NCBI GenBank assembly: GCA_002633005.1
Contig: NMRA01000052.1
Location: 1,043,235-1,107,234, forward strand
Reading direction: 5' to 3'
DNA length: 64,000 nt
From: Phoronis australis
Lineage: Eukaryota; Animalia; Phoronida
Shown one piece after another: positions 7,591 through 62,817 of the stretch (the stretch's first letter is position 1; the number at the start of each line of letters is the position of its first letter). A program made the translations under genes and the position numbers. A model generated the notes under the pieces. The model was not told the origin of the DNA. It did no database searches and saw only the letters and a list, made by a program, of their open reading frames with translations.

Positions 7591-8305
7591 TAGGAGAGAG
7601 TGGGGCAACTTGTGCCACGAAGCAAGTTGAGCCACCCCCTCTAAATGCCGAGACTTTTCAGCTGACAACTAGCGCCATCTGTGGATAGGTGATGAGTCAT
7701 CTTACTATCTCATTCATTGAAGACCTCTGCCAGAAGCAAGAAGGTTGTGAAGAAGCACAAAAGGTAATTTTGCAAGCCAAAAGTGAAAATTCAGCAAACT
7801 AATAAGTCGTCTTCGCATACCCTTGCCGCAGGGAGTAGTGGAAAGACAACTGAATCACAAACTACCTTTGATATAAGTTGTTGTATTCCAAATGACAAAA
7901 ATCTGTCCAACAAGTGCCTGTGAAACCAAAACCAGAGCACTAAAATAGGTCACAGTGGGGCAAATTGTGCCAGCCTATGAGGGGTAAGTCTAGCTGACCC
8001 CTTCTGATACGGTATTATTCCTTTACCAAAAGTTGTGTCGAAGAGAGCTAACAACAACACAAGAAAGAGGGGAAGAACTGCAATTCTTACAAATACCCCA
8101 AATCGTGACGAGATTGCTGCAAAGAAGTCCAAAAATGCTGTTAAAGGCGATCAAGCGAAACGTGATCTGTTTTCAAGTAATCAGAATCACGACGAAAGTG
8201 ATTCAGATTCAATATCGGAAACGGACTCTGAAATGAGCTTTGAATCTGACAGCGGTGAAAGCGAAACATCCGCAGATGACCTGGAAAATACTTTCGACAC
8301 CTTTT
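7591..8305 (+). mobile_element. pogo/Fot1-like (Tc1-mariner superfamily) remnant: terminus and transposase C-terminal tail
   Basis: TA then GGAGAGAGTGGGGCAACTTGTGCCA terminus-like motif with related subterminal copy at ~7955; IIPLPK...RKRGRTAILTNTP plus acidic tract typical of pogo/DDE_1 C-termini. Confidence 0.55.
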
Positions 8306-8427
8306 GAGGACTTTCAAAAAGAACTATTAACAAAAGGAAAAGGGCACTCTATTAAATCAGTAATTGAAAAAGAGCACAAAACAGTAAGTGCATTGTGGAT
8401 ACAAATTCATGACTTGTGTAATGAGTT

Positions 8428-8775
8428 ACTTACTCGCGAGACAAGGAGCCCACCGCCGCATAATCACGAAACTGTTTTCAGAGACTGAACAACTCATGAG
8501 CGATATGGACTATGACGGTGTAAAAACAAACCTTGATCTGATAACACAAAAATGGACTTAATAGCAACTCTAGACAATAGCGTCATTGACTTCGTAGAGG
8601 GTGACGACATCGAACATACAATCGAGGAATTGGACAATTATAACACAGGCGCTTATAAACAACGGGCAAAAATTATTCAATTCCTCGAGCAGACCTCTTC
8701 TACAACAGGTAAAAATGACAAATCTACCAAAACTACAGCTACCGAAATTTGGTGGTGATATTAAAAACTGGTCTG
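8428..8775 (+). mobile_element. BEL/Pao gag N-terminal fragment (DUF1759 start)
   Basis: Frameshifted ...TNLPKLQLPKFGGDIKNW; near-identical to 13486-13840. Confidence 0.8.
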
Positions 8776-10686
8776 AGTGATGATGAGGACTCGCCACCAT
8801 CACCATCACCACCACCTATGCGTGCTCTCTCTCCAGATGTTGATAACTTTCAGAGTCCCACATTTACTGAACTGAGTCCAGTCGTCTTGCCTCCAGAGCA
8901 TGCAAATGGTAAGAAAGTTAGTTCTTTTCTCTAAAACAACCCTGATCTTTGTAAATAATCGTATCCATCTAGACGTAATTGGCGTAGAAATGTCACATTT
9001 GTCCGTTCGTTGCCACTTATCAAAACTTATTTGAGAGACTTGATCACTTGGCTTAAACCACAGCTTTGGCAAGTCTAAGTTTTGCATTGCTTACATTTAC
9101 TGTATTTCAATGCTTTGCTGGACTGTTTTGTAAGTTTTATATTTGTTGCAGTTAATTCAAAAGGTCACCCCACCGTAGGTGGCAAGGTGCCACGACAAAA
9201 CCCGTGGCGTGCGCCAGCTTGTTCAAGTTGTGATCAGCTTCGAGAACAAAAAGCTGAAGGAAGAAGTTGCGCGCCTGCAATGTAGTGCGAAAGGTGAAAA
9301 TGTACATTTAGGCAACTAAAAAATTACAAAAGTGATTGTGACGTTATAGTTGTACTTGTTACACCAGACTTAAGTTATGGTTTTGTAGTTCATAAAGAAC
9401 TAAACTGTTTGTCATCTTGATCATTTATTAATTGCTTTTGTGTTAGCTTTGACAGTGAGTGGTACGTACATTTGCTATATATTTTTCAATGATTTGTTTT
9501 AGAACAAGCTTGTACTTCATCATGGGCACTGCCACCTGCTGGCTTCATGAATGAAGACGAAGCTATTTGCTTCCATGTAAGTATAAAGGAGTGCAGAAAA
9601 TTTCTCCAATTTATTCTCAATGTATGGTGACATTCATTGATTGAGCACTTTTGCTTATATGGTAACCAAACAGTGCAAGCAATTTTAATGCATTCCCATG
9701 TATAATTCAAGAAGAATTGTCCAACTAAGGGCAATGAAACTGCAAACAATTTGGTGTTCTTACATTAATATACAAACTTGTATACGTAACATAAACAACA
9801 ATTATTTCAGATGACTCCAATCGGCCAGGGTGCATACTTGCACCAGGATCAGGTGGCCTGTCTGAAAAACGTCAGCCATAGTGGGCCGTCAATGGGACGG
9901 AAGATGCAGTCAATGCTCTTCCCAAACGCGTCATCAAGAGAAGACATTGACAGCAACCTCCTGCAGATAGCAGTTAGTGAGTATAGCTGTTATGATTGAC
10001 ATGCAACTATTTTATCTTGCTGCTTTAACTATTCTTAACTTTACTACTAAGCATAGTTGATTTTCAATTTACCACTGGTCAGTCAAAGAAGTGCAACATT
10101 TTTAAATCCTTGACATGCCCTTCCAAAGGACATCTTGGTGACTGTTAAATAACTTGAACATTATCTTTATTAATATCACGATGCTTTAACTTTCATATGA
10201 TAGAACATAAGCATGAAACATTGCATCGTGCTCATAGTCTGTAATTTGTTACATTTTATTGTCTCGTGTTGAGGAACGTTTTGTATGCACAATTATTAAT
10301 CGAGCACTGAGCATAAGCAATGCTGTAGTTGTTGTTGACCTATTGTACATGTGAAGACTTCCCGTTTTCAGACTGGATAATGGCAAATAAACTGGATTCG
10401 TCCACCAGAGGCGCAGTGAATGCCAGTGTAACTTGGGCCATTTCATCGAAAAAGTGCTATAAGAAAAAGAAGCTTCTTGGATGTTGACTTGTGAAATATT
10501 AAGAGTTCCATCGCAAAATCAAATATCCACCAAATTTCAAATGTTAGAACAACTTAATACCTAAAATTTCAGATAGACGCTCTCTATGACTGGAGTGTCA
10601 AGTCATTTTTCAGTCATGACTGAACAGACGCTGTAAATGTGACTGAAAGGTGACTGAATCGTGACTGAATGTTGACTGGTCTAGGG
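8776..10686 (+). mobile_element. Intron-containing coiled-coil/BEN-like accessory gene fragment and right terminus of a DNA transposon (EnSpm-like)
   Basis: GT-AG exons (CSSCDQLRAENKKLKEEVARLQ; MTPIGQGAYLHQDQVACLK...MGRKMQSMLF...IDSNLLQIAV); subterminal GACTGAA repeats 10610-10680 ending ...CTAGGG. Confidence 0.5.
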
Positions 10687-10687
10687 T

Positions 10688-10990
10688 AAGGGATGGCCAC
10701 CTAACACCCGAATAGAAGTCGTTCAACTATAAGCAAACGTGCTACCAGAGTGGACATTGAACGATGCTTTGGTTGTGTTCAAGGAAAGTTTAGGAAACTA
10801 AAGTTTCTTGACATGAAAAAAGCAGAGGACATGTCTGGAGTCATTGTTGCCTGTTATGTACTCCATAATCTCATCATTAATGAGGACGTGGAATAAGACA
10901 ATGAGGAAGTTTATGTTTGACATCAACCTGCTGATGCTAACCCAGAATTAAGAGCAGTCACCAAGAGAAAAGGGGTTGATTTGCTTTAGG
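10688..10990 (+). mobile_element. Harbinger/HARBI1-like transposase C-terminal fragment
   Basis: GHLTPE*KSFNYK / ATRVDIERCFG / GKFRKLKFLD / VIVACYVLHN motifs with frameshifts. Confidence 0.8.
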
Positions 10991-11569
10991 AATGTGGCTG
11001 AACAATTTGTATGAAATCGAACTAGAGATCCTGCATGCCTTCCATGATTACACGCCATCTGCAACTGCGACCTCGTCTGCATTCCCTGCGTATACATAAC
11101 GCCATAAACTACCACCAAAGTCATGTTTCTACTGTGCCGACAATTCCCACAGGACTATTTTACTTTGACACAATAATTCATTACATAAGCCATGGCTAGG
11201 TTGGTTTGGCTGCAACATGACAGAAGAGTTTGTGTAAGCATCGATTGATATATGACAAACCCACTAGGGGGCGTCTCGATTGGTCACTTCAGTTGAGACA
11301 CATGTGAGCACGCAATAGTTAGACAGGTAGGACATATGCCCGTTAAAACAGTTTCGGTCTGTGAACTCGAAGGGGCCTGTGGTACCGCTGATCATTAAGA
11401 TGTAATGGAGATGCCTTGTTGTGTAGTAACTATTGAAAGGTGTCTATTTCTAGTAATAGTAATCCGTAACAGTTTAGGATGGATGATTGTAAACAGTTAC
11501 TTGTTTGATAGTTTACCTTATGTATAATACAACTTACAAAGAATCTTCATGGCTCAGTTTTAGTGTACG

Positions 11570-11730
11570 ATAAAGAGACCATGATTGGTAAAAGCACTGT
11601 GGGTATAAACCATATGAAAACTGGTTAAATTCCAGGTATGGATGAAATCTTGTTAGAGTTTTTAAATACAGCACCCTTTTTGGACAATCACTCCACTGTT
11701 GCTGTTCTATCGTATTTTGAAAGAGAGGTA
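11570..11730 (+). mobile_element. LINE ORF2 (pre-RT) fragment
   Basis: INHMKTG*IPGMDEILLEFLN...LLFYRIL resembles the LKxGKAPGxDGIxxEFLK...LFNxIL motif. Confidence 0.55.
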
Positions 11731-12254
11731 TTTGTTAATGTTTATGTTAGAATCCCCGCACCTGACTGCAGCTAATGGGATGGGTGCAGTGTGTGGGTTG
11801 ATGACTCTAGGAGACATGGCTTATTATGTAATGTTACTCATAGGGTACCAGATAAATTCTGAATGTCAAGGGATTTTACAGCAGTTCAGAACAGAGATGT
11901 AAACGAGTTAAGACGTATTGTAGCAGTTGAAAGTTAGTAGTGAAGCAGTTTATGAAGTTGAAACCAAATAGAATGTAGCAGGACTTTGATTCCACCACAG
12001 AAGTAAGCAGTTATTTACTATAATTCGTGTTATTATGTATTTGCATTTTTAAAGTAAAATAAGGTTTATTTAGAATTATTGTCAAATAGAAAACTCAGAA
12101 ATATATTTGACTATTATGAAAAATAGAATGAAGAAGAAATAACGAAAGTTTAACCCAGCGCCAAACATGCGCATCCTACATACGCAGCTTGTTTAATGAA
12201 GCCTTGAAATTACGGTATCCTACAGACACCTTAATGCGCTACAAACTGCCCCTA

Positions 12255-12790
12255 CGGTGAACCGACTATCGCCTGAGGAACAGCAAGCTATAAGATATGT
12301 TGCTGGTGCAATGTGTAGTAAGCTGCTACAGCGTGTGTCTTATTTGAAGTCCAGGAAACACTCAACATATGTAGGATGCATCCAAAATCTCACAGGGGAA
12401 GGTACCAGGGAGGATTCTTGGACTGTTCTTCATTTCACATGAACTGTATCTGTTTGCCAAAGAGCTAGAGAACGTTGTCCCTAGTGAAGTGTTCAATGAC
12501 AGTACCATTGTAAACTACCATGGGGAAGATGTACGGATGGGTTTGATGGATTCCTTTCAGTCGTCCAACCCTTCTTGATCTTTGGGACCAGGTAACTCCT
12601 GGATTTTCACAAGCAATTAAACTGGATGTGCTGTTCATGTTTGTGAAACTTTACTTAACAATAAGGGGGTTTTCCTTTCAAAAGAAGATAGTAAGCTTGT
12701 TTGAAGAGAAGCAGTATTGCAATGTTAAGGGGCAGAAAGGATTGTGCAAATCATTGAAAGCTATGAACCAACTTTTATCATCATAGAAGA
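12255..12790 (+). mobile_element. Degraded transposon ORF fragment (P-element C-terminal-like YVAG motif)
   Basis: EEQQAIRYVAGAMCSKLL and LFMFVKLYLTIRGFSF; family assignment tentative. Confidence 0.45.
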
Positions 12791-12995
12791 TGCGCAATGT
12801 ACAAATGACTTCCTTTAACTTGTCACCTTTGAGACTGCAAAAAACAATGACTTGGCCAAGTAAATATTTACAAAACAGTAAGTTCATTGTGGATACAAAT
12901 TCATGACTTGTGTAATAAGTTAAGCTAGGTCACTTGTACTGTTCAAAAACGTTGTGAATATTGTTTATGCTAAGAATCACTCTATAATAATTCCG

Positions 12996-13190
12996 AACAG
13001 TGGAGCCTAACAAAAACTGAAACCATAACCAGCTTCGAGGCCTGGCGACTAAATTTCCTGGCGACAAAATTTACTTTAAATTTTGTCCCTCGATGCCAAT
13101 TTTGTGCCGTTCCTGGCAGAAAAATTCACCTGAGAAAAGAAGAATCACCCCATCAGAGGCTTCACGGACGACCCGCCCGGAGCCACAAAC
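12996..13190 (+). mobile_element. LTR-retrotransposon (Gypsy-like) gag N-terminal fragment
   Basis: QWSLTKTETITSFEAWR / NLL*ILSLDANFVPFL / FT*EKK / PIRGFTDD; contains a ~16-bp tandem duplication cctggcgac(t/a)aaattt. Confidence 0.65.
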
Positions 13191-13191
13191 C

Positions 13192-13840
13192 TGTCAAGAA
13201 TGACTTCTTGACATTTTATCTATTCTGAGAATTGTGCCTTATTTGGGCCCACCTACATGTTTAATACTATTGGTTAGTTTAACTCCTCCTACTCATACCA
13301 CGTGATTACAACACGTGGCTGTATAACTGTATTATTATATTGTAGTTTCAGTGCAAATAAAATCAGTTGTTCTTTTAACCCTACACAAACCAGTTATCAC
13401 TTTTGCTCTCCCACCTCATTCCACACAATTTTCTGGTGCCGAAACCTAATCAATGTAATGGAATCTATGACAGCGCAACAGAAACTTACTCACGAGACGA
13501 GGAGCCCACCGCGGCATAATCACGAAACTGTTTTCAGAGACTGAACAACTCATGAGCGATATGGACTATGACGGTGTAAAAACGAACCTTGATCTCATAA
13601 CACAAAAAATGGACTTAATAGCAACTCTGGACAATAGCGTCATTGACTTCGTAGAGGGTGACGACTTCGAACATACAATCGAGGAATTGGACAGGTCAAT
13701 TATAACACGGACGCCTATAAACAACAGGCAAAAATTATTCTATTCCTCGAGCAGGCCTCTTCTACAACAGGTAAAAATGACAAATCTACCAAAACTACAG
13801 CTACCGAAATTTGGTGGTGAGATTAAAAACTGGACTGAGT
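13192..13840 (+). mobile_element. BEL/Pao 5' end: LTR, tRNA-Phe PBS and truncated gag
   Basis: TG(13192)...CA(13427) with internal AATAAA; TGGTGCCGAAACC at 13434-13446 complementary to the tRNA-Phe 3' end; gag to LPKLQLPKFGGEIKNWTE. Confidence 0.75.
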
Positions 13841-15017
13841 GATGATGATGACTCGCCACCATCACCATCACCTATGCGTGCTCTGTCTCCAGATGTTAGT
13901 CCCACATTTACTGAACTGAGTCTAGTCGTGTTGTCTTCAGAGCATGCAAATGGTAATAAAGTTAGTTCTTTTCTCTAAAACAACCCTGATCTTTGTAAAT
14001 AATCGTATCTATCTAGACGTAATTGGCATAGAAATGTCACATTTTTCCGTTCCTTGCCTCTTATCAAAACTTATTGGTGAGACTTGATCACTTGGCTTAA
14101 ACCACAGCTTTGGCATGTCTAAGTTTTGCATTGCTTACATTTACTGTATTTCAATGTTTTGCTGGACTGTTTTGTAAGTTGTATATTTGTTGTAGTTAAT
14201 TCAAAAGGTCACCCCACCGTAGGTGACAAGGTGCCACGACAAAACCCGTGGCGTGCGCCAGCTTGTTCAAGTTGTGGTCAGCTTCGCGCAGAGAACAAAA
14301 AGCTAAAGGAAGAAGTTGCGCGCCTGCAACGTAGTGCTAAAGGTGAAAATGTACATTTAGACAACTAAAAAATTATAAATTTAAAAGTGATTGTGACATT
14401 ATAGTTGTACTTGTTACACCAGATTTAAGTTGTGGTTTTGTAGTTCATAAAGAACTAAACTGTTTGTGATCTTGATCATTTATTAATTGCTTTTGTGTTA
14501 GCTTTGACAGTGAGTGGTACGTACATTTGCTATATTTTTCAATGATTTGTTTTAGAACAAGCTTGTACTTCATCACGGGCACTGCCACCTGCTGGCTTCG
14601 TGAATGAAGACGAAGCTATTTGCTTCCATGTAATTATAAAGGAGTGCAGAAAATTTCTCCAAATTATTCTCATTGTATGGTGACATTCATTGATTGAGCA
14701 CTTTTGCTTATATGGTAACCAAACAGTGCAAGCAATTTCAATGCATTCCCATGTATAATTCAAGAAGAATTGTTCAACTAAGGGCAATGAAACTGCAAAC
14801 AATTTGGTGTTCTTACATTAATATACAAACTTGTATACGTAACATAAATAACAATTATTTCAGATGACTCCAATGGGCCAGGATGCATACTTGCACCAGG
14901 ATCAGGTGGCGTGTCTGCAAAACGTCAGCCATAGTGGGCCGTCAATGGGACGGAAGATGCTGTCAATACTCTTTCCCAAACGCGTCATCAAGGGAAGACA
15001 TTGACAGCAACCTCCTG

Positions 15018-15960
15018 TGTAGTAGTATCGTGTAGTGATTCTCTCTCACTAGCCAAGTAGAATACATGTGTTATATGTCAGACTCCAGTCGTCGTTTTAT
15101 ATACGCTTATAACGGCCAGCTATTACTACATGGTGGCAGCGGTAAACCTGTACGCCTTTCAACATCCGTGCATCGACCTGCAACCTGAACTAACGTCCAG
15201 AAAGTCACCAACCTGCGGACATTCTTCTTTCGGACTGAACATTCTGCTGACCTCGCCGAGAGACATTGTTCTGCAGTCAGACGGCACTCGCTCGCTCAAC
15301 TGACATAACTGCGACGAGATCAACAAAACCGTAAGCAAAAACAGTGCATAATTGTCTTACGGACATACTGTCCACGGATAGAACGCGGTGATCGCCATTA
15401 GCCGCGCCATACTCGTGTGTATTTACTTGTGACCTATTTTACCTTCTCACGGCGGACTAACACTGTCTTGTGCCGTAGTAAAGTGTTCCGCCTAACTCGC
15501 CTCGCTGCTGTATAGGAACTCCTTTCCTGGTGAAAATTAGTTTCGCCTAACTAGTGGACACCTACAGTAAATTCCAAAATGGCCGCCCATTTCCCAATTA
15601 TGCGGTGGGACGGCGATGATCTGAGCGAAAACCTACTGCTATTTAAGCAGAAAATGACTCTCTATCTCGAAGATGAGGCAATTGAAGATGAAGTTAAGCA
15701 GGCTAAGAAAATCTGCCGTGGTATTGGTGATGAATGGCTTAAGCACCTGAATGTCAGTGGGCTCAGCGATGCAGACAAGAAAGACCCCAACCAGCTGTGG
15801 ACACTTTTCGAGTCTCAACTCAAAGTGAGCGTCAATTTTTGGATACACAGACTGCACCCCATGCAATTACGGCAAAAATCACAAGAAAGCCTAGATGATT
15901 TCGTCACCGGAGCACGCACTGTGGCCCTCAAATGTGATTTTGGTGACGACGAGCTTAGTG
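15018..15960 (+). mobile_element. Gypsy 5' end: short LTR, tRNA-Leu PBS, 5' UTR, truncated gag
   Basis: TGTAGTA(15018)...TACTACA(15130) inverted LTR ends; TGGTGGCAGCGGT at 15131-15143; ORF 15579 MAAHFPIMRWDG...LRQKSQESLDDFV...KCDF; absent from the paralogous site at ~9963. Confidence 0.88.
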
Positions 15961-17063
15961 AGTATAGTTTTCACAATTGACATACAACTATTTTATCTTG
16001 CAGCTTTAACCATTCTTACCTTTACTACTAAGCATAGTTGATTTTCAATTTACCACTGGTCAGTCAAAGAAGTGCAACATTTTTTAAATCCTTGACATGC
16101 CCTTCCAAAGGACATCTTAGTGACTGTTAAATAACCTGAACATTATCTTATTAATATCACGATCCTATAACTTTCATGTGATAGAATATAAGCATGAAAC
16201 TTTGCATTGTGCTTATAGTCTGTAATTTGTTACATTTTATTGTCTCGTGTTGAGGCACGTTTTGTATGCATAATTATTAATCGAGCACTGAGCATAAGCA
16301 ATGCTGTAGTTGTTGTTGACCTATTGTACATGTGAAGACTACCCATTTTCAGACTGGATAATGGCAAATAAACTGGATTCGTCCACCCGAGGCGCAGTGA
16401 ATGCAAGTATAACTCGGGCCATTTCATCGAAAAAGTGCTATCAGAAAAAGAAGCTTCTTGGATGTTGACTTGTGAAATATTAAAATGGTTCCTGTTCAGT
16501 ATTTTGCTGTATTCTCATAATATTCTGCGTTGAACCATAATTGTCTCGCACATTTCACAAGTGTTTTAAACATCCCTTAAAAAAATTTATCTCCAAAACA
16601 AATGATTCAGTTCTTACTTGATATTTCCATTGGTTAATTTTTCAATTTTAACTAATTTGCTATGTTCACAGAAATAAAATAGATTCGTACTACTTGTGAA
16701 CAATTCTATCAATTTCTTATAAGTGTTCCCTCGTTTCAAGTTGTAAACACTGAGAAAGGGCAAGAACCGATACCTTAGCTTTTTTAAACAAATATACCAA
16801 CTCTTAACTGTCATTATTGTTTTATCGTTTAAGAGTAGACTACCGATAAGTCGGAATGTCTTGGACATTTTCCTATGAAACAGTTGATAACATACACTCC
16901 TTGAAGTCAAATACATTTGTCGGATGAAGTTGTGTAGTCCAATCGAATTCACCTTATTCATTTTCAGTTGGTAATGGCAGCATTCCTTTAAAAGATGTGT
17001 ACGTACACTTTAACATGTAACTTATCGCATTCTGTTTTACATGATGCTCTATTTTAATTTTCA

Positions 17064-17600
17064 GAAAATCATAGATGAGGATACTCCTGTTGAGACCGGC
17101 TATGTTCGACTGGTGGAGGATCACCCAGTCATCGTTCCAACAACAAAACCAATTTTCATTAGCAACAGAAAAAGCTATCGCCTTAAGATGATGATGAATG
17201 GATTCTACCAGTCGTCAGAAGTTGTTGGGTTGACTGGTAGTCAACTGGCCTCCACAACTTTAGGCCAAGCGTTGAAAGGTACATATTTTTCTCTAAATTT
17301 TTTCAACAAAAAATTAACAATGAACTTCATCTGAAATATGAAAATATTGAAAACAGAACAACTCAACTGGTTTCCTTATTTCTTTCACCAATTCCATTGC
17401 TTTAACAAACATCTTTTGGCTAAGATGGCACAATTAGACTATTGAAATTGATGTAGGTTTCATCTTCAATGACCTATTGTTTTTTTCTTTTCAGCCTACA
17501 TTCAACCTCAGCAGCAAAGACTTTATTTTTGCTCTGAATATCAAAATTGGCACCATGACCAGAGCATTGAAACACATTCAAAAATAAGTTCTGATCAGAG
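17064..17600 (+). mobile_element. Spliced EnSpm-associated (SAMD3-like) ORF fragment
   Basis: Exons with AG/GT boundaries (KIIDEDTPVE...DHPVIV...; ...TFNLS...); assignment from remembered similarity only. Confidence 0.3.
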
Positions 17601-18264
17601 TAGTTATGTAGTGGTGTTAAACTATATTGTCAAAGTACAGTACATTGCAAGTTGTAATTATATCGGATGTTTGAAGTGTTTAGTTTTAAGTTTATTATTA
17701 TATGATTCTATGTCATAGGCAAAAAGCTTTACAAATTCTCTTGTCATCTGTTGGTTCACTTTGTAAAACTGATGTCCGCAGCTGGGAGTGGGAGGGCCCG
17801 CTATTAACTAGACGGGGTGCTGATTTGTATATTTTTGTGTAAGAAGAGAAATTTTCGTCTATGACAAAGAATTCTATAATGATTAACACTAGACTGATGT
17901 AAATTTTAGGACATGTTTAGTTAATCATGGCATACTTCGGAAAATTCTGGCTTAACCGATTCGAACTCACACGGAGTCTACTGTAGGTGTACTTTGTTGC
18001 CTGTGATCTTTTTAAATACTGTGAAAGTAGTTCTGTATTATCTTCCAGTTGTAATTCCATTATTTGTACATGTAATTAAGTGGCTCTTGGGAACATAAAA
18101 ATGTGAAATTCATTGCTGGTTTTTATTAAAACTGCTTCCCACGTTTTAATTTTTTTAATGCCAACTTGTAAGGTTAAATTATTAATTTGACGACATAAAA
18201 ATATAGGCACTGTGTTCACAGCAATTTTCAGCAGTCAGTGAAAGCACTGTATGTATTCGCAGTT

Positions 18265-18412
18265 ATGTTTGTGGCAAGTTCCGGGTAGTCCCTGTAAGAT
18301 TAAATGGATGTTCGCAGCAAGTTCGTGGCAGGCCATATAAGGTTACATAGAAGTTCACGGCAGTCCATGTAAGGTTGCATGGATGTTCGCAGCAAGTTCG
18401 TGGCAGGCCACG
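18265..18412. repeat. Subterminal-type direct repeats
   Basis: atggatgttcgcagcaagttcgtggcaggcca twice plus interleaved gtaaggtt variants. Confidence 0.7.
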
Positions 18413-18422
18413 GAAAAACGCA

Positions 18423-18615
18423 ATGGCAAATGCACGGACAATGTGAGGTATATAACGCGGACGCTGAAAACTGGAAACACTATGTGGAGAGGCTGAACTT
18501 TTATTTCGTAGCAAACGACGTGAAATCTGATGAGAAAAAGAGGGAAATTTTTCTATGTGTGGCTCAGCCACTTACCAAACCATACGGGATCTGATACAAC
18601 CAGTAAAACCCAGAG
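18423..18615 (+). mobile_element. Gypsy gag N-terminal fragment
   Basis: YNADAENWKHYVERLNFYFVANDV...KKREIFL / CGSATYQTIRDLIQPVKP. Confidence 0.8.
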
Positions 18616-19315
18616 ATATTCAAGAGATTTACGACAATGAAACCTACATCACGGAAGTGCAATTATCCACAGGACAATACCTTCCGTCTCCATCCACAAC
18701 CGCCGCACCTAAGACTTCATCGCCGACAGCACATTTACGGAAACTGGAACTCCTTAAATTCTAGGGCGATTGCCTGGAATTCCTTGGTTTTTGGACATGT
18801 ATATTGCTGCCGTCCACAACAATCCACACCTAACGGATGTTCAGAAATTTCAGTACTTACACTCGTCTTTAAAGGGTGCAGCAAAAGAAATTATCAACGG
18901 CCTGCTTTAACGGTTCCGTCTCATCCCGGACACTTTCGACAATTTTTTGACTCCCTGGAAGTGCTGCTAAGGACACTTTACACCATCGACCCAACGGACA
19001 TCAAGGACCTGCTCGTTCTGATCATTCTGGACAAACTTCCAGCTGACTTCCAAAAGAGCATTGCTCACCAAAACCACAGCGACATGCACATGCCTGTCGC
19101 CACTCTTCGTGACTTCTTAAAGACAGAAGTTAAGATTCTAGACGCTGGCTGTGGATCCACCGACAGCCCTATCGCGACATGTACCAGTCCTCCACAGCGG
19201 CATTTCAAACTAGTGCCCGACATTACTAGAGCAGCAAATCATGTAAGTTATGCTTTTACTGTTCGAGGGTCCACATTTCCACTCACTGCCCAGCCCACGT
19301 ATCTTACGATTCTCG
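18616..19315 (+). mobile_element. BEL/Pao gag (DUF1759) fragment
   Basis: LRKLELLKF*GD / VHNNPHLTDVQKFQYLHSSLKGAAKEIINGL / LIILDKLP. Confidence 0.8.
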
Positions 19316-19316
19316 C

Positions 19317-26490: not shown

Positions 26491-26526
26491 AGGTTTTCTG
26501 TTTTGTAACTTGTATATTTGTTGCAG

Positions 26527-34600: not shown

Positions 34601-34609
34601 TAAGACTAA

Positions 34610-51062: not shown

Positions 51063-52230
51063 AGAGAGAATTGCCCACTTCCTGCTGCAGTTTGCAGAGG
51101 ACCATGCATTGGTCTTACCTGGTGGAGTCCCTGGCTTCAAAAGGACAGATATGCCCATCCTGCCGTCCGAGCACACTAAAATTTCCCTGTGGCGGTTTTA
51201 TCGTGACCTTGCTATACGGAGAGGTATGTGAATCACAACATTGAGCCAACATTTGCTGAGCTATGTGCTGTAACGGTGTGACATCAGCAAAATTTTATCT
51301 GATGTTTAAGCATCAATTGTTCTACTTTAAACATGTTATTAAATAACCATATTATAAAATGTTATTCAAAGGAAGTTGATGCAACACGGCAGTTGTTTAA
51401 ATTAAGACTGCAGTAATTACTAGAAACTTGATTTCGGGATTTCATCACTGACTAATGAATGTTTCCAAATTTCCTAACTTTTAGTTGATGGTTTTGCAAA
51501 CAGTTATTGAAAACACCATAATAATTTGATCAAATAACCATCAATTTTTGATACCAGCATATCACATTTGTTTAGGTCATCGACCAGTTGGAAAATCAAC
51601 TTTTTTAAAGACCTGGAAGGAACATGCGCCGTTCATTGTAGAAGGTCGCCCTACGACAGATCTGTGCTAGAAGTGAAAAGAAAACAATGCGAGAATACAC
51701 AGAAGTGCTAACCTCACAGAGCAACAGAAGCTGGCACTGTTAGGGGAACAATTTCAAAACCTAAAAATTGTAGAAAACGAGAGAAAATTCTACAACGATC
51801 TTGTCAAGACTTGCAAAGCTGTTGCAGCGACTGAAGGGATTTCCAGTCTGGGGCCACATCAGCAGAACTCGGGTGAATTTAGGTTTCACTATTCGTTTGA
51901 TTTTGCCCAGAAGGTGCATCTCCCACACAGTCCTCTACAGCCCGGGCCACTGTACTTCCTTGTGCCTCACAAAGTTGGGATTTTTGGCATTTGTGCTGAT
52001 GGACTGCCGCAACAAGTGAACTACCTCACAGACGAGGGGACGAGTTCAGGAAAGGGATCGGACATGTGGTTTCCCTCCTACATCATTTCTTTGAGAACTA
52101 TGGCATTGGCGAGAAATGTATGGACCTGCATTGCAATAATTGCAGTGGGTAGAAAAAAAAAAAAGTATGTACTGTGGTATATGGTGTGTCGTACACTTTG
52201 TGAACTTCACAGTGAAATCACAATAAATTA
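51063..52230 (+). mobile_element. Sola-like transposase fragment (longer copy, with intron)
   Basis: FAEDHALVLPG.VPGFKR...LPS plus the HYSFDFAQ/QPGPLYF block. Confidence 0.7.
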
Positions 52231-55200
52231 TTATGAATGTGGACGTTAGTTTTGTAATTCCAGTCAAGTTTGACTTTTCTGCTGGGCAGTCTGTGTTCTA
52301 AAACATCACACTTATTTTTTGGCTTTGGCACATGTTGATTTGAAGGCATACTTAGTGTAAGAGTTTTTGTAATTTAACTATGTTTGCAAGGTAGCATTAT
52401 TTAATTTTGTTTGCTACTTGAGTCATTTTACAGTACGTCAGCCACTGTCCACAGTTTTTGCAGCAATGCAAAAATGCCACAAAGATGTGAACACTGAACA
52501 TTGCAAAAAATATCCAAGAAAATGTCACTAAACTGTGAAATTGTTAGATGCACTATGTATGGTGAGTGTGGAAAGTTATATTAAAATTGGTTCATGGTTG
52601 CTATGGAAATCTTGACTTTGAATTTCTGTTAACTTTGACCTCAATTATCTCAAAGACATAGTCCCAGACGTCTGCATATAATCCTTCCTAACTTTCATTA
52701 ATATGGTCAGATCTGAAAACGGTTTTCACCATTAAAAAGAGCATGAAAATTTCTCTCAGAAAGTGTGAAAAGTAAAAATATAAATTTGGTGCATTACGAA
52801 TCATATTGTGGTGGAGGATCACAACTTTAGATTGACCTGGAGGACAGTGAACTGACATTAGAATTCATTTATAATATATTAGAATTATTGTACCAAAATC
52901 TATTGTTCCCATAGCTCATTGACAATAATTTTAACAGGAAACTGTAAAAAAATGTTTAGGTACGGACTTGACATGTAAATAAAAGATCAATTTCTCTTGT
53001 GACTTCAATTCTTCATCCAGTATGAAAGAAAATTTGTGTGCGATTTTCTGGGAATTCAATTTATAGTACAGTCACTTTACAAAGAACCTTAGTCCAGTCA
53101 CTCTAAAAGCTAATAATTAAATGTTTAACATTTAGTACTCAAAATTGGTGTCATATGCATGCTTTTCATGAACATTAGGTAACTGATTTTAGAGGAAATT
53201 AGTGCCAGCAAACCAAATGACAGTGATCAGCTGTCGCTTGTTCTTAGCCAGTCTTGGTGGATTTCATACCGAGATGAGCTTTCTGGGATTTATTGGATAC
53301 GTAATCTCAGGCACCAGGCTTCAAGTTCTTGAGACAGAGTATGCACCAAACGGTATGATCCATATGTTAAATTGAAAACGTGTGGACAGAGCAGTGAGGG
53401 GGCATATGTTGGTAGACTCAGCACTGAATGCTCTCATAAAAGCCAGAACATTCAACATCCCACTTCCAAATATTGACAGATCAAGTAACGCCAATCCAGA
53501 ACCAATGACTTAAGGATTTCAAGAGAGAAGTTCCGGTTCTTCAGATATTCAAGGAGTCCCGAGTGCCACCAACACAGAACACAGAACACACAGATTCCAT
53601 GCCAAGAGGTGGAGCGATTCCATGCCAAGAGGTGGAGCAATTCAATGCTTGTACACAAACGTTGGCTCGTCATAATATATGGCGACAGATTCTTCAGATA
53701 TCTCAACTGATCACATAACTAGACTGCATGGGACATGCAATGCACAGGTAGTGTCTTCCGATTCTGAACCTTGGATTACAGTGGAAAACACTCGCAAGAG
53801 TTCACTTCTGGTTTCCGACATACTGCCACTGCATGGTATATTCAAACAGGACTGAATAAGGGTTTTTTGAATTCGCAGTGACAGAATGGTTTGTCAGGAG
53901 AATCAATGGCCACCTTGCAACTAGTAAACTACACATCAAATCAATATGAAATCTCCATTTGAGATATTCATTTACATTCAAAATTTTCTATTAAACCCCA
54001 TCTTGTCACATGACGCCATCCAACATCATTGAAGTAGAACAAATGTATTATACATCAGCGCACTAGATTTCTTCACAGAAGAAATCGAAATTAACAAAGG
54101 TAATGATTTCTAGGTTAAAAAGCATGATTTCGAACCATCAAGTATTAAGTCGACCCTAGTAAGTGCCCATTCATACTTCAGTTATAAAGAGTAAGTTGAT
54201 TTCATAATAAACGATACAGTGTGGTAAATAAAGTATTCTGAATCTTTCAGTTGGATCTAAGTAAAGACTTTGATGAACCAATTAAAAAAAAGATAAAATA
54301 CAGACAAGCTGGAGGAAGAAAGCCTGCTACACCCACGGTCAGAAATGTTGCTTTCCAACGGTTTATTGATATCAGGGGATCATTAAAAGGTAGAATGTCA
54401 TGAAAACCTTTTCGCCTGGAATGCCAGAACTATATCAAAATTATCTAAACGTCTTGGTTATGATGTTCCAGTAGTTGAAGTTTTCTAACAAATTAAATTT
54501 AATTCGTTAAATGCATTTATCGTCATTATTTTGACATTTGTCTCTTTATTTTGATATCAACCCTTAGGGTTTATTTTGCATTACTCATTTCTATTTATAG
54601 GCTCAAGGGCCTACTTTTGTATTCATACATTTCTCTATGCGACACCTGATTGGTCCCCCATATTTTCTTTGTTCAGTTCAACGTGGTCTCACTCAGCCAC
54701 CTACCTCGTCTTCTACAAGACCTACGTTCGTTCTCTGCATTTTTTTGCATTTTTCGTTTCCTTTTGACTCTTGACCCCTTACTCCATTCGGGTGTGATGC
54801 TCAGCCACTTCTCGTTCCTCTGCTTTACTTCGTCCTTTTCAAGGTAAGTCCCGTTTTTGATTTTAACCTTCCGTTTCATTTACGTTATACCTCATGTCGC
54901 CCCATGTACTCATCCTTGGCAGTTTGTATGTCTGTTGGCTGGACAACTTCGTGTCCGACCTTCCCCAGGCCCGCTACCTCCATAACTACGGCTTCCGACC
55001 TTCCCTGGTCACCATTTCATTCCTGGGCATCTCTGGCGGGACACTTCTCCCTGCCCCGAAGTCCATCCAACCGGCCACCCGTTCCCTCCCTCGTTTCCCT
55101 CCCGACAGATCGGAGGGAATGACCTCCACTCCACCTACATCGAACCACATGCCTTGGCCACGCATCATGTTTCTTTCGCTCGTTTTTTGTTATTTGCCTA

Positions 55201-58200
55201 CGACATCCGACGTGTTTTAGTCGGACAGGCGTTTCATCGATTACACGAAGGGAGGCGCTTTCGTTCTCGCCTTCTAGCCTTCAACTCATCCCTTAAATCC
55301 CTCCTGTCCCACGAGCCTCACATTTATTTTTGGACTCACAAGGGAGATTTTTGGGCTAACCCCAACCACCTCTACCGCCCGGACGGGGTCTACTTTAACC
55401 ACTCAGGCCTTCATAAACAAGCCTTCAGCGTTCGCGTGGCCATTGGTCACCACCTTCGCGAACTGGGATTTATGGATTCGTGATTGTATGCTAAAGTATC
55501 GAGTTAGTCTAAACAAACCAAATAAACAATTCAGACAAATGAAGAACGCATCATCTGAATAAGTGAATTTATAAAGAATGTGTGGTATCTCCACCAAGAG
55601 GTGTGAAGTTAAAGGCAAGAGTCTCTGAATGTGTTCCAGAAGATGAGGGGTATTTTAAGAGTCCACAGCATCACAGTGTATTTCAAGTTGCTTGATGATT
55701 ACTGGAGTATGAAATTTTTTGTTGCACTGTATTGTAAGAATTGACAGTAGACAACCAATCTCAATTCATATTCATGTCATTTTACTAATTTGCAACACAA
55801 AAGATCTATCAAGTATAGCCATATGGTGAATAATAGGCAAAAAGACGATCAGACAAATAAATTAGGATGCTTCTTTTAATTGTCATTTTTCATTTTAGAT
55901 ACATTTTACATAAAGGTATGAAAACCACCTTCTTGAAAATGAAACGCGTTGCACATGGGACTGCTGATGCCATTTACCAAACACTTCTAAGTGTTTTAGA
56001 AGAGTATGAGGTGCCACTAAGGAAGGTGACAACTTTTGGCTCAGATGGAGCAAGTGTAATGGTTGGTCAGAATAATAGTGAGGCATCCAAGCTTTGTACT
56101 TGTCAGCCTTTTTGTGTGTGTGTTCATTGTGCATGTCACAGACTGCACCTGGCAGTAAGTCAAGCATGCAGAAACAACAGAAACATGAATGTATGTAAAG
56201 CAGTTTCAATTGCTGCATGTAATTTGATTTTTAAATTTTACTACATTTCGAAATCAAAATGACAGCATTTAAATTTAAATTTTCCAGACACTGGAACGGA
56301 CTCTTGGATTAATTTACTCTTTTGTCCAGTGTTCAGAAGTCAAGGGCATTGCTGACATCCTAAACAGTGAAAGTGTAAAGTTCAAAAGATTGTTTGAGAT
56401 CCGATGGTTGTCTATGAGTGAAAGCTTTATAGCCTTAATAAGAAACACGGAGCCTCTTCTGGTTTTGTTGAGCCATGAAGCAAATAACAGGGATCCAGTG
56501 GCGCAAGCAATCCACACAAGCCTATCGAACTACAAAAGTGTTGCTCTTCTATTCTTAGTTGAAGATATCATGGATGCCATGTCTCATTTATCCAGAATCC
56601 TGCACTTTAGAGATGTATGCTTTGGTACACTTAAAAGCGCTGTACGGTGAAGTTTTGTGATGTATTCATATCTTGTATTAGTTTTTGAGCAATCAAGACA
56701 TGCATTAAACTATTCCATGACACATTGCTTAGGCTTTAAAGTTATGCAGTCAGGATGTGAATATGGTAATGACATATCTTGATTGTTTCATTTCGGGTCC
56801 AAGCTTGTCGTGATACATTACAAGACATGGCTTTTAATGATGGGCCTGACTTGACAGATTTTAAAGCACAACTGACTGCAGGAAACAGTGTCTTCAAGGG
56901 CACCGTTATCAGTAACCACACTCTAACAGGTGATGTAGTCTCACAGCAACAATTGTTTGAGCACTTGGCTGCCATTGTGGAGAAAATCAACAACAGATTT
57001 CCTGACGTGAACTCGTTGGATGCCATGCAGGTAATGATGTTCATCAACAAAAATTTGTTAAATTTCGATTTGAACACGACATGGAAAAGAATAAGGTAAA
57101 ACCTCTTTATTTATAGATATTTGATCGAAGAGCCTACCCTTATGCCCTTCACAACTGCTGGGTAACAAACTACCTTGATGTTCCTTTGGGACACTATGGT
57201 GTTTCAAAGGACGGACATCCCCCTATGGTGGACCCTGATGTAACTATACTATGTGCATGCAGGTGTTGATTAAGAAATGTGCGTCATAGTCTCTTGACAA
57301 AACTAGTGAACTTGATCAACTAAATGAAAAACTTCATTCTCATTGCAGGTGCGGAAAAGATGCGAGAGACCATCTGGTCAACAATTTTTCACTGCATGTC
57401 AACAGACGAAGTTCTGAGGCATCACCGTTGTCCAATTGGCAAGGAAAGCTGGTGTGTTTTTCAGCACGCGAAGGTGGAAGGAAAACTTGCACTTAAACAC
57501 CAACATGTCATCCATAATGACTTATCCATTAAGTTTTGAGAGAAATGATCACCCTCTATGAGAGGTTGTCTGATTTAAGTCTATTGAAAAAATGGAGCAT
57601 GGCCAAACAGAAAATTCAAACAAATGTTCGAACAATCTCAATTGGATTCAATGCCCCAAAGCAGTGTTTGCTGGTAAGAGGAAAGTTGTGGCAACTGTGG
57701 CTGCGGTTGCACCAGTTTTAACGAGGGTGCTGTGTATTTGACCAAACTTAAGACTAACTTGCTCTTTGCGGAGATTTGCTCCAGTGACGCCAGTCTCAAA
57801 AACAAAGTCGGGGTGATCCACCTGTGTGAATCTCTGGCAATCCCCGCCTTGAGGAAAGCTATGACTTTGTATTTGACCATCTGAAGCATCAGTGTGGCAA
57901 GGACTTGGGTTTGCATCACCATTGTTTTGGAGGTGCGCCCAAGGAGGTGCTGTGGTGCACTGCTTTTTTAAGAACTTCTACTTTGGTCTTGCCAGTCATG
58001 TGAAACGGTTTTTGAAATTCCTGAACAAGGGCTCACGGAGGTGTCAAGTGAATCGACTCTTACTTGAGTCTGATTCCCTGCACCTTGCAATTGAGCAAGC
58101 TCCAACGGTGCCCCAATACCTGGGGAGGTAGCTGCCTGGAGGTTGCAAAGCATTCTTGTCGTTCGCTGCACGAGCTGCTGGTTGCGTCCACCAGGAATTA

Positions 58201-61200
58201 CCTTTTACCCAATGACAAAGTCATGGAAGATGGAGGTTTTACTATTAATTGATGACTTACTGTTTCCAAGACGAGTTAAGTTTAACATACCAGCTATCAC
58301 CAAAGGTAAGACACAGCTTAGCCAAAAAGATCTGACAAAAACACGACTCATTGTCACAGTAAGAATCCATGTGGAGTGAGCAATACGAAGAAATGTTTTC
58401 AAAATTTTGAGTTCCATTATTCTAGTGTCAAGCACAAAATCGATGGATGACTTCTTTTTTGCTTGTCAACTTTTTTCACACCCGAGTATTCTAAACACTT
58501 TAATTGCTTACAGGCAGTCAATTGCCAAGTAACTCCTCTGCTGGCTGAAAGAGTCTGTTGCCATGAGATGGCAAAAGTGGTGGCAAAGCTCCAGAAAGAA
58601 GTGGAGAGAGGAGTCATCTCTCAACCTAGAAAGTGCGTCAAGGACCACGCACGTTTTGACCGTTTGGTTAGACGCAGGCGTTCTAGAGACCAGCTGGGAG
58701 CAGTACAAATTTCACAACACTGATGGGTATGAGTGGCCATACGACAAGAAAATGCGGCACATCGGGTATCGCTAATTTCAGCGATGGATTCATGGCTTTT
58801 TGGGACGGTGGGTCAGAGTCGTCGCGCCTGCATGTGCTGTTGCAAAGATCCAGGCACACTATCCACCACTTGGGAATGAAGAGGATTTTGTTTTCACTGG
58901 TTTTGCTTTTGATTGATTATTACAATGTGGAACAGAGTGTCCATGATAAACAGTATCGTAATGTATATTAAGCTTGTGCATTGGTAAAAGCAAAACACTT
59001 TCCACAGTATTTTCTTAGTACGTAATCCTTTCTATTTTATAATAGCAACCAGCAGCTCTACAAAACTCCAACATCAGCGTACTAGATTTCTTAACTGAAT
59101 AAATAGAGTGCACTGATGTATAACACAAAGATTACCAAAATATAAGGTGTCACTAAGGAAGGTGACAACTTTTGGCTCAGATGGAGCAAGTGTAATGGTT
59201 GGTCGGAATAATGGTGATGCATCCAAGCTTTGTACTTATCAGCCTTTTTGTGTGTGTGTTCATTGGGCGTGTGACAGGCTGCATCTGGCAGTACATCAAG
59301 CATGCAGAAACAAAAACAAACATGAAATGTAAAGAAGGAAGTTTCTAGTTTTTGTGTTCAATTGCTGTATGTAATTTGATTTTTAAATTTCACATTTTAA
59401 AAACAAAATGACAGCATTTAAATTGAAGTTTTCCAGGCACTAGAACGGACTCTTGGATTAATTTACTCTTTTGTCCAGTGTTCAGAGGTCTACCTACAAC
59501 TGTTCAAGGGCATTGCTGACATAATAAACTGTGAAAGCGTGAAGTTCAAAAGATTGTTCGAGATCCAGCGGTTGTCTATGAGTGAAAGCTTTATAGCCGT
59601 AATAAGAAACACGGAGCCTCTTCCGGTTATGCTGAGCCGTGGGCACATAACAGGGATCCAGTGGCGCAAGCAATCCACACAAGCCTATCGAACTACAAAA
59701 GTGTTGCTCTTCTATTCTTAGTTGAAGATGATATCATGGATGCCATGTCTCATTTATCCAGAATCCTGCACTTTAGAGATGTATGCTTTAGAACACTTAA
59801 AAGCGCTGTACGTTGAACTTTTGTAATGTACTCATATCTTGTATATATTTTTTAGATATCACACATGCATAAAACTATGCCACGACACACTGCTTTGGTT
59901 TTAAAATTGCAAAGTGTTTTGCAGTATGATGTGAATATGGTAATTACTTAATTTGATTGCTTCATTTCAGGTCAGGGCTTGCCGTGATATGTTACAGGAC
60001 ATAGCTTTTAATGATGGGCCCAATTTGACAGATTTTTAAAGCACAACTGACTGCAGGAAACAGCGTCTTCAAGGGCACCGTTATTAGTAGTCAGTAATAC
60101 TATAACAGATGAATTCTCACACTTCTACACAACGTCAGCGTCAAACTAGAAATTAAAGAGTAGCTGATGTTGTCAACACACTCGACGAAATCGACCCAAA
60201 TGACAGTGATATTGAGGAAGATTCCACAGACGATGAAGATTATGAAATACCCGAGGACCAGTCCAGAACTACAGTGCTAAAGGAATCTTCTGATGAAGAT
60301 GAAGCTGTGCCCCAACCTGCTGCACCACAGCCTTCTACGTCCAAGAAGAATGCTTATAAATGGACCAAATCTCAGTTCGTGTCACCCGATGCTATCTTCA
60401 GACTGAGGGAAGTTGTTAGATTGGCCTGATGATTGTCAGTTACCATCGCCTATAAATTTTTGTATGATTTTGTAACTGATGATATGCTGGACTTGCTTGC
60501 AGAGATGTCTAATCAGTACAGTGTAGAAAAAACTGAAAAGTTTGTTGACACTGATAAAACTGAACTGAAGAAAATGATTGGTATGTTTTTGAGGATGGGT
60601 CTGACAAAAATGTCAGGTAATCGCAGTTAATGGGAGTCTGACACTAGGTATTATTGAACCCGTGGCAAGTGTGATGAGCCGAAATCGGTTTCAGTTACTA
60701 CTAACATCACTACACTTTGTCAACAACACTGCTAGTGATGAGGACAAGAAGGATAAACTGTGGAAAGTATGCCCTCGGCTTGAGAAATTTAGACAGAATT
60801 GCCAGAAACTTGTTCCCGAGGACATATGTAAGACATAGCTGTTGTAGAGTGTATTGCATCTCCACGTTGATTTAAAATGTTTTTGAAGACAATTTTTGAT
60901 CTCAAGTTGAAATAAAACTGATTATCTTCAACTGAACATTTGTTTTATTGTGACCAATATTTGGTCTTTTTTCGACCCTCAAGTCCCATTGGGTCACCGG
61001 TGGAACAATTAAGAAAAATTAATTAGCAAGCGTGAAAAATTTTTTGACCCTACTCTTTTGTTTTTAGGCCTATTAGAGAAATGTTCAAGTGGAAAATAAT
61101 ATTTTTAATCAATTTGAAATTAATTTGGGCCCCTGAGGGGTAATTACTTACTTTGCTTGCTTCATTTCAGGTCAGGGCTTGCCGTGATACGTTACAGGAC

Positions 61201-61389
61201 ATAGCTTTTAATGATGGGCCCAATTTGACAGATTTTAAAGCACAACTGACTGCAGGAAACAGCGTCTTCAAGGGCACCGTTATCAGTAGTCAGTAAATTT
61301 CATTTCTTCCTGCACCCCCTCCGTACCTCCCCCTTCCGCGCCACGCGCCTAAGAGTAGCAAGTTGCCTGACTCCTCATGAATATGGACC

Positions 61390-61760
61390 CCAACTTTTTC
61401 AATCCTAGATGAGTCCATGGTTACACGTCTCTACAAACATGTACACTTCAGAGGCATACACCCCTTTGCAGAGTGGAAATGTGTAAGTCAAGAAGATGAA
61501 GGCAGAGAAGACTACAAAAACAGCTTGAAGATAATCCATTTCACCAGTGTTTATCCTCTCTCCAATGCATGCTGGGAGAGAACTTTCTCAGCCATGAAGC
61601 ATACAAACAGTGATTGGAGATGAAGACAGGACACTGACACCTTAAACGGACATTTGAAAAGAAGTCTACTCTAAGTGGGCCAAAGTTCAATCATTTTGAA
61701 GCCATGACAATAGTGCAGAGATGGTGGCTTGCAGGCCAGAGAAGAAGATGGCCCAATACA
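61390..61760 (+). mobile_element. hAT C-terminal dimerisation-domain fragment
   Basis: VYPLSNACWERTFSAMKHTNSDWR. Confidence 0.75.
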
Positions 61761-62817
61761 CTGACATAGAGACCCAAAAACTAAGGAATGACATTAAAGC
61801 TGCTGGATCCTGGTTGTCTAAAATTTTTGATTATAAACTCTGACACATATAAAAATTCAAGGTGTATTTGAATTTTAGCCATCTGACGGGTATTTTTACA
61901 ACCACTGTCACTACTAGTCATGATACTTGCGCTTGCAAGATTGGGTTTCAGTGACAGTGTCAGACATAATGGCTGTGACGGTCTCTGTTCAATGTGATTA
62001 GAGGCATTAAGTCGATACACCCTCCAGATTGAATGGCACCAAGGCAATGTTCACATTAATGTATTTGCAGAAGAGGAAATGTGCTGCAATTATTGGACAG
62101 GGAATCCAGTTCAGGATTTACATTGTATTGGAGCGTATCAGAAGTAGGATGATTTTGATGCACAAGTCAGGCAAATGATTTGATGTCTTTGGCTCATAAG
62201 TCAGAAGTGGTCAAACTTGAGCGGGTTGGTGGGATTGGAAATGGGACAGCTATACTGACCATTGATTGTATTGACGATTCCGTGGCATTTCGAGTTGAGG
62301 GTGAGGAAAACACCATGGTAAGGGGAAGCGTATGGCTTAATATGGTTGATGTTAACTCATTTAGTGACAAGGCAAGCAACACCTCTAATTATATGGTACT
62401 GCAATTCATTGTGCAGGGCCCAGTTTTATCAAAGCACACACACACATGACACTGTTACACCTTAACTGGTTTTCACTGGCACACAGTTCATTCCTTACAA
62501 ACCACAAGCGCATTTCCAACAATGCTAAAACGCTCTCAAATCTAAAACCAGATACTGATGGTCTTACTTCAGTACACAACAGTATCAGTTACCAAAGCTA
62601 CACATACTTCAAACATTGTCAGCACTTTACTTCTGGTTTACATGACCAACTTTCTCACCTTAGAAAGTTAATCACTGACCAGCTGACCAGCATTTTCTCA
62701 AATACCTTCTGGCCAACATGCCAATGAAACCCTTTAAAACTATGTAAACCATCAATGACATTGCACAACTTCTCAAATCCTACTCCAGTACAGGTAACAA
62801 CTGACACACGCTGACTC

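Follow-up and report, generated by a model that had tools for sequence, protein, structure and literature searches.

The origin of PIWI-interacting RNA (piRNA) clusters is an open question; in mosquitoes, mammals, and flies, there are documented cases of read-through and of capture by a 3′ untranslated region (3′UTR). The locus described here is an array of broken transposon pieces in the phoronid Phoronis australis. It lies in a window of 64,000 nucleotides (GenBank assembly GCA_002633005.1, contig NMRA01000052.1, positions 1,043,235 to 1,107,234 of the forward strand; all coordinates below count from the first letter of this window) between the gene for integrin-linked kinase (ILK) and a gene encoding a fusion of cysteine desulfurase (PF00266) with TtcA (PF01171), referred to here as the TtcA-like gene. 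What is new is stranded RNA sequencing (RNA-seq) that shows antisense RNA over the array and is calibrated on spliced ILK reads.

In Drosophila, flam has its own promoter (10.1101/2022.08.22.504762), and the strand bias of flam-like clusters comes from Gypsy elements alone (PMC10643416). In the read-through clusters of mosquitoes, the RNA-seq signal climbs at the cluster end (10.1101/2022.08.22.504762). The piRNAs of Arion slugs come from unistrand clusters of packed fragments, to which they are antisense (PMC11615739), and the clusters of Lymnaea and Crassostrea show enrichment of Kolobok, hAT, Polinton, BEL, and Academ elements (PMC6128900). Antisense insertions of Tirant in the 3′UTRs of fly host genes trigger piRNAs; such insertions are rare and viewed as transient (PMC13226689). 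A literature search for piRNA clusters with ILK or TtcA, which covered few subscription papers, found nothing on the present locus among the 10 of 77 matches listed.

One-way array and its antisense RNA

On the minus strand, the window presents the TtcA-like exons and stop codon, 1 kb of UTR, the array, a 1.8-kb tail with three AATAAA signals, and the 3′ end of ILK, met head-on. The sequence has ∼39% GC and 1,020 N in four places, which leave five gap-free pieces (1-32249, 32627-36812, 37454-39655, 39657-47346, and 47348-64000). Pfam searches covered both strands of the whole window. Their first input consisted of 381 stop-free segments of at least 50 amino acids (192 on the plus and 189 on the minus strand), obtained from 493 segments by dropping 113 later copies and restoring one of these; the second input was a set of 111 low-stop stretches with X at the stops (52 plus and 59 minus). 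After copies and pieces of the same element were merged, transposon-type Pfam families were represented by 9 independent elements, all 9 of them on the plus strand (p = 0.004). These are six DNA-transposase pieces, two BEL pieces, and one P2RX7_C piece, none of them Gypsy-specific. No transposon-type match was found on the minus strand by this screen, which is blind to some transposon families and to noncoding elements, so that minus-strand pieces of such kinds could escape it; the best minus-strand match in the array, to Reb1_MybAD (E = 0.001), was below the cut-off.

Targeted checks added four plus-strand pieces (gag-like at 15579, hAT-like at 33131, and DUF7869-family at 27236 and 50959), so that 13 pieces on the plus strand and 0 on the minus strand have tool support. 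About 14 other plus-strand pieces are presumably pogo-, long interspersed nuclear element (LINE)-, Copia/Gypsy-gag-, Academ-, SGNH-, and SWIM-like and the like, judging from their motifs. Stop-free runs of at least 150 amino acids in the de-duplicated array, a count that overlaps the Pfam one, number 10 on the plus and 0 on the minus strand, and plus-strand pieces are present in all five gap-free pieces alike.

The one-way array is therefore real, as the original prediction had it, although its independent count is below the one first claimed: a figure of about 25 independent fragments is plausible, with tool support for 13, and the proposed odds of order 2^-24 are too small, because a third of the array (17,907 of 53,160 bases) consists of later copies of earlier array sequence. 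All but one of the 39 internal blastn repeats are direct, which was not counted as a sign of selection, since tandem copying preserves orientation.

Transcription was assessed in three raw stranded RNA-seq runs (X1 to X3) with the same species label, 18 to 19% of each of which was mapped on positions 1-20000 and 44001-64000, at mapping likeness 93 and 94 for the two stretches. That the libraries preserve strand is clear from the ILK bins, in which first-mate-minus accounts for 99%. Since ILK, whose GT..AG joints at 511-1527, 1625-1926, and 2056-2577 are seen in RNA reads, reads first-mate-minus, first-mate-plus reads represent minus-strand RNA. With the runs pooled, minus-strand depth exceeds plus-strand depth in 40 of the 44 array bins, which are not fully independent (3 are reversed and 1 is empty); minus reads alone occur in 24 bins and plus reads alone in 0. 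The minus strand contributes 78% of the array depth, and the remainder is mostly at short repeats. The minus-strand depth per run is 0.04 to 0.4 at the TtcA end, 0 to 0.4 at 45-53 kb, 0.5 to 0.7 at 14.7-20 kb, 1.2 to 1.4 at 8.7-14.7 kb, and 3.7 to 5.3 at 6.0-8.7 kb; within the mapped parts, it thus climbs monotonically toward the far tail near ILK. The stranded minus-strand RNA that had been predicted, putatively one long molecule, is seen in the 40 kb mapped, antisense to the pieces.

The strand of the RNA flips at ∼6004, and bins 6004-8004 have a minus-strand depth of 2.0 to 6.6 per run. The tail has no transposon coding matches, contains 35.5% U, and carries AATAAA on the minus strand at 5827, 6026, and 6193. 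The antisense RNA of the array likely ends within this transposon-free tail, at ∼5.8-6.0 kb, head-on with ILK.

Several percent of the sequence differs between the samples and the assembly (33 of 641 letters of the ILK UTR in one contig). In run X3, 9 reads leave the window sequence behind 8380, 2 reads join 13545 to 15796, and the interval 8672-12006 is almost without reads. These departures likely represent another haplotype of the array, which suggests that the array structure varies between individuals. Splicing from 8380 to another site within the window found no support, as the loose-end sequence of X3 does not occur elsewhere in the window. A fourth data set, X4, consists of contigs of guessed RNA nature without strand information and covers ILK and short repeats only.

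Candidate source of the antisense RNA

The array can be regarded, with moderate confidence, as a putative unistrand piRNA precursor made by read-through from the TtcA-like gene or as a giant 3′UTR. Polymerase would run past the TtcA-like gene without stopping and produce a polyadenylated RNA of tens of kilobases, which the PIWI machinery would cut into antisense piRNAs directed at many families of DNA transposons and retroelements. Insertions that land antisense would be retained by selection and sense ones discarded, while deletions would trim the pieces and local duplication would copy them. The depth that rises to the far end, without a peak at the TtcA-like UTR, fits a single long polyadenylated RNA. 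The first canonical poly(A) signal on the minus strand past the TtcA-like stop is at 60944.

A narrower form of this reading, in which the array grew inside the 3′UTR of the TtcA-like gene, a conserved tRNA-modification gene, and the ancestral end of this UTR is the transposon-free tail (5.8-7.6 kb), cut off from the first kilobase by tens of kilobases of antisense insertions, is offered tentatively. If it is true, the main mRNA of the gene doubles as a piRNA precursor, and a 3′UTR trap has developed into a permanent cluster with fast turnover that acts on DNA transposons and retroelements alike; the gene pair would be traceable across clams.

Several observations weigh against the main reading, a piRNA precursor made by read-through from the TtcA-like gene. 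None of the runs has a read in bin 58675-59341, and plus reads outnumber minus reads in the junction bin 60676-61342; minus reads occur at 61343-62676 in X1 and X3 and are thin at 60676-61342, and no molecule among the mapped reads joins the gene to the array. The proximal UTR (61771-62817) has minus reads in X1 and X3 and none in X2. Run X2 has coverage along 45-60 kb and almost none at the TtcA end (mean depth, 0.04), whereas in X3 the TtcA end is covered and 45-53 kb is not. Reads that fit as a whole number just 35, 41, and 16 per run in the right half, where most reads fit in part. The proximal UTR contains seven weaker poly(A) hexamers, the transcribed strand shows no depletion of AATAAA (30 on minus versus 21 on plus), and U-richness of the antisense array RNA was tested and not found (30.6%). 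Finally, close accession numbers of the two flanking genes are confined to 3 of 14 species (see below).

The thin or missing reads at 58675-59341 and 60676-61342, the uncoupled coverage of the array and the TtcA end in X2 and X3, and the weak hexamers behind the stop would all fit a flamenco-style unistrand piRNA precursor with one or more promoters of its own inside the array or at its edge, to which the TtcA-like gene is a mere neighbor; in that case, the steps in depth at ∼8.7 and ∼14.7 kb may mark starts. However, depth falls monotonically, as 3′ bias predicts, and at the TtcA end (∼0.4 in X1 and X3) it resembles that of the adjoining array and lacks a separate 3′ peak. Nor do starts or ends of molecules accumulate at any place in the mapped parts of the array, an observation of little weight at such low depth. 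An own promoter is rather unlikely.

The orientation of the pieces and the antisense RNA could also be accounted for without small RNAs, if the array were a passive graveyard in a long 3′UTR or long noncoding RNA, from which sense insertions were removed as transcript breaking while antisense ones were tolerated, with no consequential piRNAs. Elements inside genes generally show an antisense bias, and splice donors in the array are skewed to the plus strand (GTAAG, 53 versus 29, p = 0.011), so that sense copies would carry splice sites; the counts of splice acceptors were not used, being inconsistent between patterns (66 versus 46 and 12 versus 24). Yet both a bias of 9 to 0, or 13 to 0 with the targeted pieces, across DNA transposons and the almost fully filled 54 kb next to genes with introns of 0.15 to 1 kb appear stronger than tolerance alone would give. 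Moreover, the transcribed strand has many AATAAA signals and thus shows no avoidance of poly(A) signals, and an antisense piece in any fly 3′UTR suffices to trigger piRNAs (PMC13226689). Passive accumulation appears improbable. If no piRNAs are made, the locus would still strongly exemplify selection on orientation within a long transcript, albeit with less interest.

A technical or neutral origin, in which a few insertions were amplified by tandem duplication, haplotypes were joined end to end, and reads were attracted from copies elsewhere, draws on the copied third of the array, the four N joins with an 863-bp repeat of 98.7% spanning one of them, the 2 to 6% divergence of the large copies, which is like that of the runs' ILK UTR from the window, and the mostly partial fits of right-half reads, but it is very improbable, given that the nine elements were counted after copy removal, that plus-strand pieces occur in all five gap-free pieces and shared-end copies within one, and that reads of active elements elsewhere would be sense while 24 bins are antisense only.

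Flanking genes and contents of the array

The coordinates and supporting evidence for all features are listed in Table 1.

Table 1. Features of the P. australis window, by position
Feature	Positions	Strand	Evidence and remarks
ILK, last exons and ∼3 kb of 3′UTR	437-5800	+	361 homologues; array transcript convergent
Tail of the minus transcript, UTR-like, likely 3′ end	5827-7590	−	Strand flip, motifs, composition
Minus-strand RNA antisense to the pieces	6004-62817	−	Seen at 6004-20000 and, thin and with holes, at 44001-62817; presumably a single continuous molecule
Mosaic of broken transposon pieces (array)	7591-61770	+ (coding strand)	Pfam and targeted searches
Harbinger-type transposase piece	10705-10893	+	Plant_tran, E = 1.3e-6; DDE_Tnp_4, E = 4.6e-5
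Long terminal repeat (LTR)-retrotransposon gag-like piece	15579-15959	+	Atlas feature matches of 0.91-0.94, several with Retrotrans_gag; no Pfam match
BEL/Pao gag piece	18607-19317	+	DUF1759, E = 5e-10 at 18758
piggyBac-type transposase with stops and frameshifts	19966-21506	+	DDE_Tnp_1_7, five segments (lowest E = 8.5e-25)
Harbinger/ISL2EU-type transposase piece	21748-23257	+	HTH_Tnp_4, DDE_Tnp_4 at 21748-22639, E = 7.4e-6
DUF7869-family piece	27236-27894	+	500 homologues; copy at 51575-52243
hAT-like transposase piece	31387-33950	+	Atlas matches of 0.95-0.96 (unnamed clusters) and 0.92 (FAM200/GTF2IRD2); copies at 36353, 40915, 55771, 59141, and 61139
P2RX7 C-terminal-like piece	35737-36340	+	P2RX7_C, E = 7.8e-6 at 35751; copy at 58519
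BEL/Pao gag-protease piece, longest coding remnant	37454-39022	+	DUF1758, E = 2.3e-10 at 37943
Second piggyBac-type piece	41740-42499	+	DDE_Tnp_1_7, E = 3e-7 at 42076-42478
EnSpm/CACTA-like transposase piece	45283-47100	+	DUF1258, E = 4e-4, and DUF4218, E = 8e-3, at 45519-46450, both under curated cut-offs
Second copy, colinear with most of 24570-42499 (94-98%)	48314-60856	+	Self-blastn, breakpoints
Mutator-like transposase piece	50767-51063	+	PF20700, E = 3.1e-7
Second DUF7869-family member	50959-51225	+	tblastn
Proximal 3′UTR of the TtcA-like gene	61771-62817	−	No AATAAA or ATTAAA on the minus strand; seven weaker hexamer variants
TtcA-like gene, last exons and stop	62818-64000	−	196 homologues; candidate driver of the array transcript

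The stop codon of the TtcA-like gene, at 62818-62820 on the minus strand, is ∼1 kb away from the array edge at ∼61770. In 112 of 120 homologues, the protein terminates no more than 15 residues from this stop, which can be taken as the true C terminus on the strength of these alignments. A splice joint at ∼63497-63651 is covered by 2 reads of X1, so that the gene is expressed at low depth. The desulfurase-TtcA fusion is widespread among invertebrates, mostly labeled uncharacterized; NCBIfam gave a weak match to TtcA alone, in 1 of 24 proteins at E < 0.001.

On the opposite side of the array, all named homologues of the left gene are ILK, with the best single-exon identity in a nemertean. Its plus-strand RNA extends to ∼5800-6000. 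The exon at 437-511 is a cassette exon, as the same upstream sequence is joined in reads to either 437 or 1527; this fourth exon is matched by mollusc isoforms only (9 of 120 proteins). At 5337-6200, the ILK 3′UTR and the minus transcript seem to meet or overlap (both strands are present in bin 5337-6003 in X1 and X2), and such an overlap could give rise to double-stranded RNA.

Fourteen species have both ILK and the TtcA fusion: in 10, the two are on same-sized contigs, and in 3, their accession numbers are close, with a difference of two in Mactra, three to four in Mercenaria, and eight in Mya. The order of accessions is an imperfect proxy for gene adjacency, and the orientation of these genes in clams is not visible from it. 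Since the accessions are close in three clams, the array may sit between old neighbors, and we infer that it grew between these two long-standing ones. A metagenome scan with a TtcA exon (80 loci) yielded no ILK kinase domain, ankyrin-region matches alone at two loci, and no array DNA. With the array bracketed by two conserved genes whose accessions are nearly adjacent in three clams, its ancestral empty state and its growth could be compared directly across species and haplotypes.

The flanks, described in the original prediction as transposon-free, indeed have no coding match; they do contain short repeats, one in the ILK 3′UTR at ∼4016-4089 and one in an intron of the TtcA-like gene at ∼63182-63290. 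At both of these sites and at 54490-54745, 44001-44213, and 44677-44727, reads or contigs run on into other sequence, mostly on both strands. These are likely pieces of high-copy short interspersed nuclear elements or miniature inverted-repeat transposable elements. An Rfam scan of the window gave 0 matches.

Within the array, the large colinear copy starting at 48314 is either a local tandem duplication or a second haplotype. Just ahead of its start, at 48224-48291, there is an AT-rich palindromic 11-nt tandem repeat. Copies of the second piggyBac-type piece, with ends at 47626 and 60856, stop at the same base of the piece; as these shared-end copies are inside one gap-free piece, some of the copying is real. 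The 863-bp repeat (31387-33485, 98.7%) flanks the gap of 377 N at 32250 and is probably an assembly overlap.

The Harbinger/ISL2EU-type piece has relatives (85 to 87%) at 35047-35562 and 58194-58523. It contains a perfect 14-nt tandem array of 11 copies (22747-22901), absent from both relatives, which is either a recent expansion or an assembly effect. The DUF7869-family piece at 27236 is presumably Sola-like. When 150 of its 500 homologues were used in tblastn, they gave plus-strand matches only and nothing on the minus strand; the DUF7869 domain was found in 14 of 20 scanned homologues, in 13 of them above the cut-off. The hAT-like piece, with a best named row of 0.92 and no Pfam match, is weakly named. 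The P2RX7_C piece is putatively transposon cargo. Cargo is also possible for the open plus-strand frame at 23743-24105, which has a weak chromo/Tudor-like match (MSL3_chromo-like, E = 0.024).

Exon-like plus-strand pieces with splice-like ends are found at 16660-17530, opposite the site of the Reb1_MybAD match; the spliced-looking piece at 17065-17280 had no homologue among 35 candidates. A self-complementary end of ∼45 nt occurs in four copies (29664-29708, 36283-36338, 54044-54086, and 59082-59127), two of them behind P2RX7_C pieces, and may be the terminal hairpin of an element. The inverted repeats, of which the 25 longest were considered, include none with clear boundaries of an intact element, and the top pairs derive from this self-complementary end.

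Comparison with known piRNA clusters

With flamenco and the flam-like clusters of Drosophila, the array shares a long one-strand locus in which fragments of the same orientation are read antisense (PMC10643416). In contrast to them, its start is ∼1 kb past the stop codon of a gene on the same strand, and its content is a mixture of many transposon groups. Assignment to the flamenco type was rejected, given that class's Gypsy-specific content (PMC10643416) and the six DNA-transposase, two BEL, and one P2RX7_C elements found here. The flamenco-like character that had been proposed thus holds for the layout but not for the content or for the start behind a same-strand gene (PMC10643416, 10.1101/2022.08.22.504762).

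In molluscs, the one-strand antisense layout is seen in slug clusters, and enrichment for DNA transposons and BEL is seen in those of the snail and the oyster (PMC11615739, PMC6128900). The coverage of DNA transposons, held at the outset to be unusual, is therefore not so when set against snail and oyster clusters with such content (PMC6128900). Both the layout and DNA-transposon-rich clusters have thus already been reported in molluscs. The mollusc clusters differ in that they rest on small-RNA data and, in the accessible text of these reports, come with no named upstream driver gene (PMC11615739, PMC6128900); comparable gene-linked loci could already be within the published mollusc lists. 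The locus also supports finding such arrays from sequence orientation alone.

In the case of Tirant, likewise, transcription of a host gene reads a transposon antisense in the 3′UTR (PMC13226689). However, those are single insertions (PMC13226689), whereas the present array spans tens of kilobases and many families.

The piC-DoGs, piRNA clusters located downstream of genes in mouse, human, and hamster, also consist of packed antisense fragments behind a host gene, with transcripts of >50 kb and a distal poly(A) end (PMC11615739). They are found in mammalian gonocytes, contain LINE-1 and endogenous retrovirus sequences, and have a distal site described as new (PMC11615739), whereas the tail of the present transcript appears to resemble an ordinary host UTR.

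The core read-through clusters of mosquitoes are, like the array, unidirectional, lie right behind an expressed gene on the same strand, have a higher signal at the end, and are antisense in content (10.1101/2022.08.22.504762). The mosquito clusters were defined by small RNAs and chromatin, and those of Aedes are rich in viral pieces (10.1101/2022.08.22.504762); the array of P. australis, in contrast, consists of DNA-transposon and LTR pieces and is known from its sequence and RNA-seq, with piRNAs and read-through putative. On balance, there is a reasonable case for likening this putative piRNA source to the mosquito read-through clusters and the mammalian piC-DoGs rather than regarding it as a copy of flamenco.

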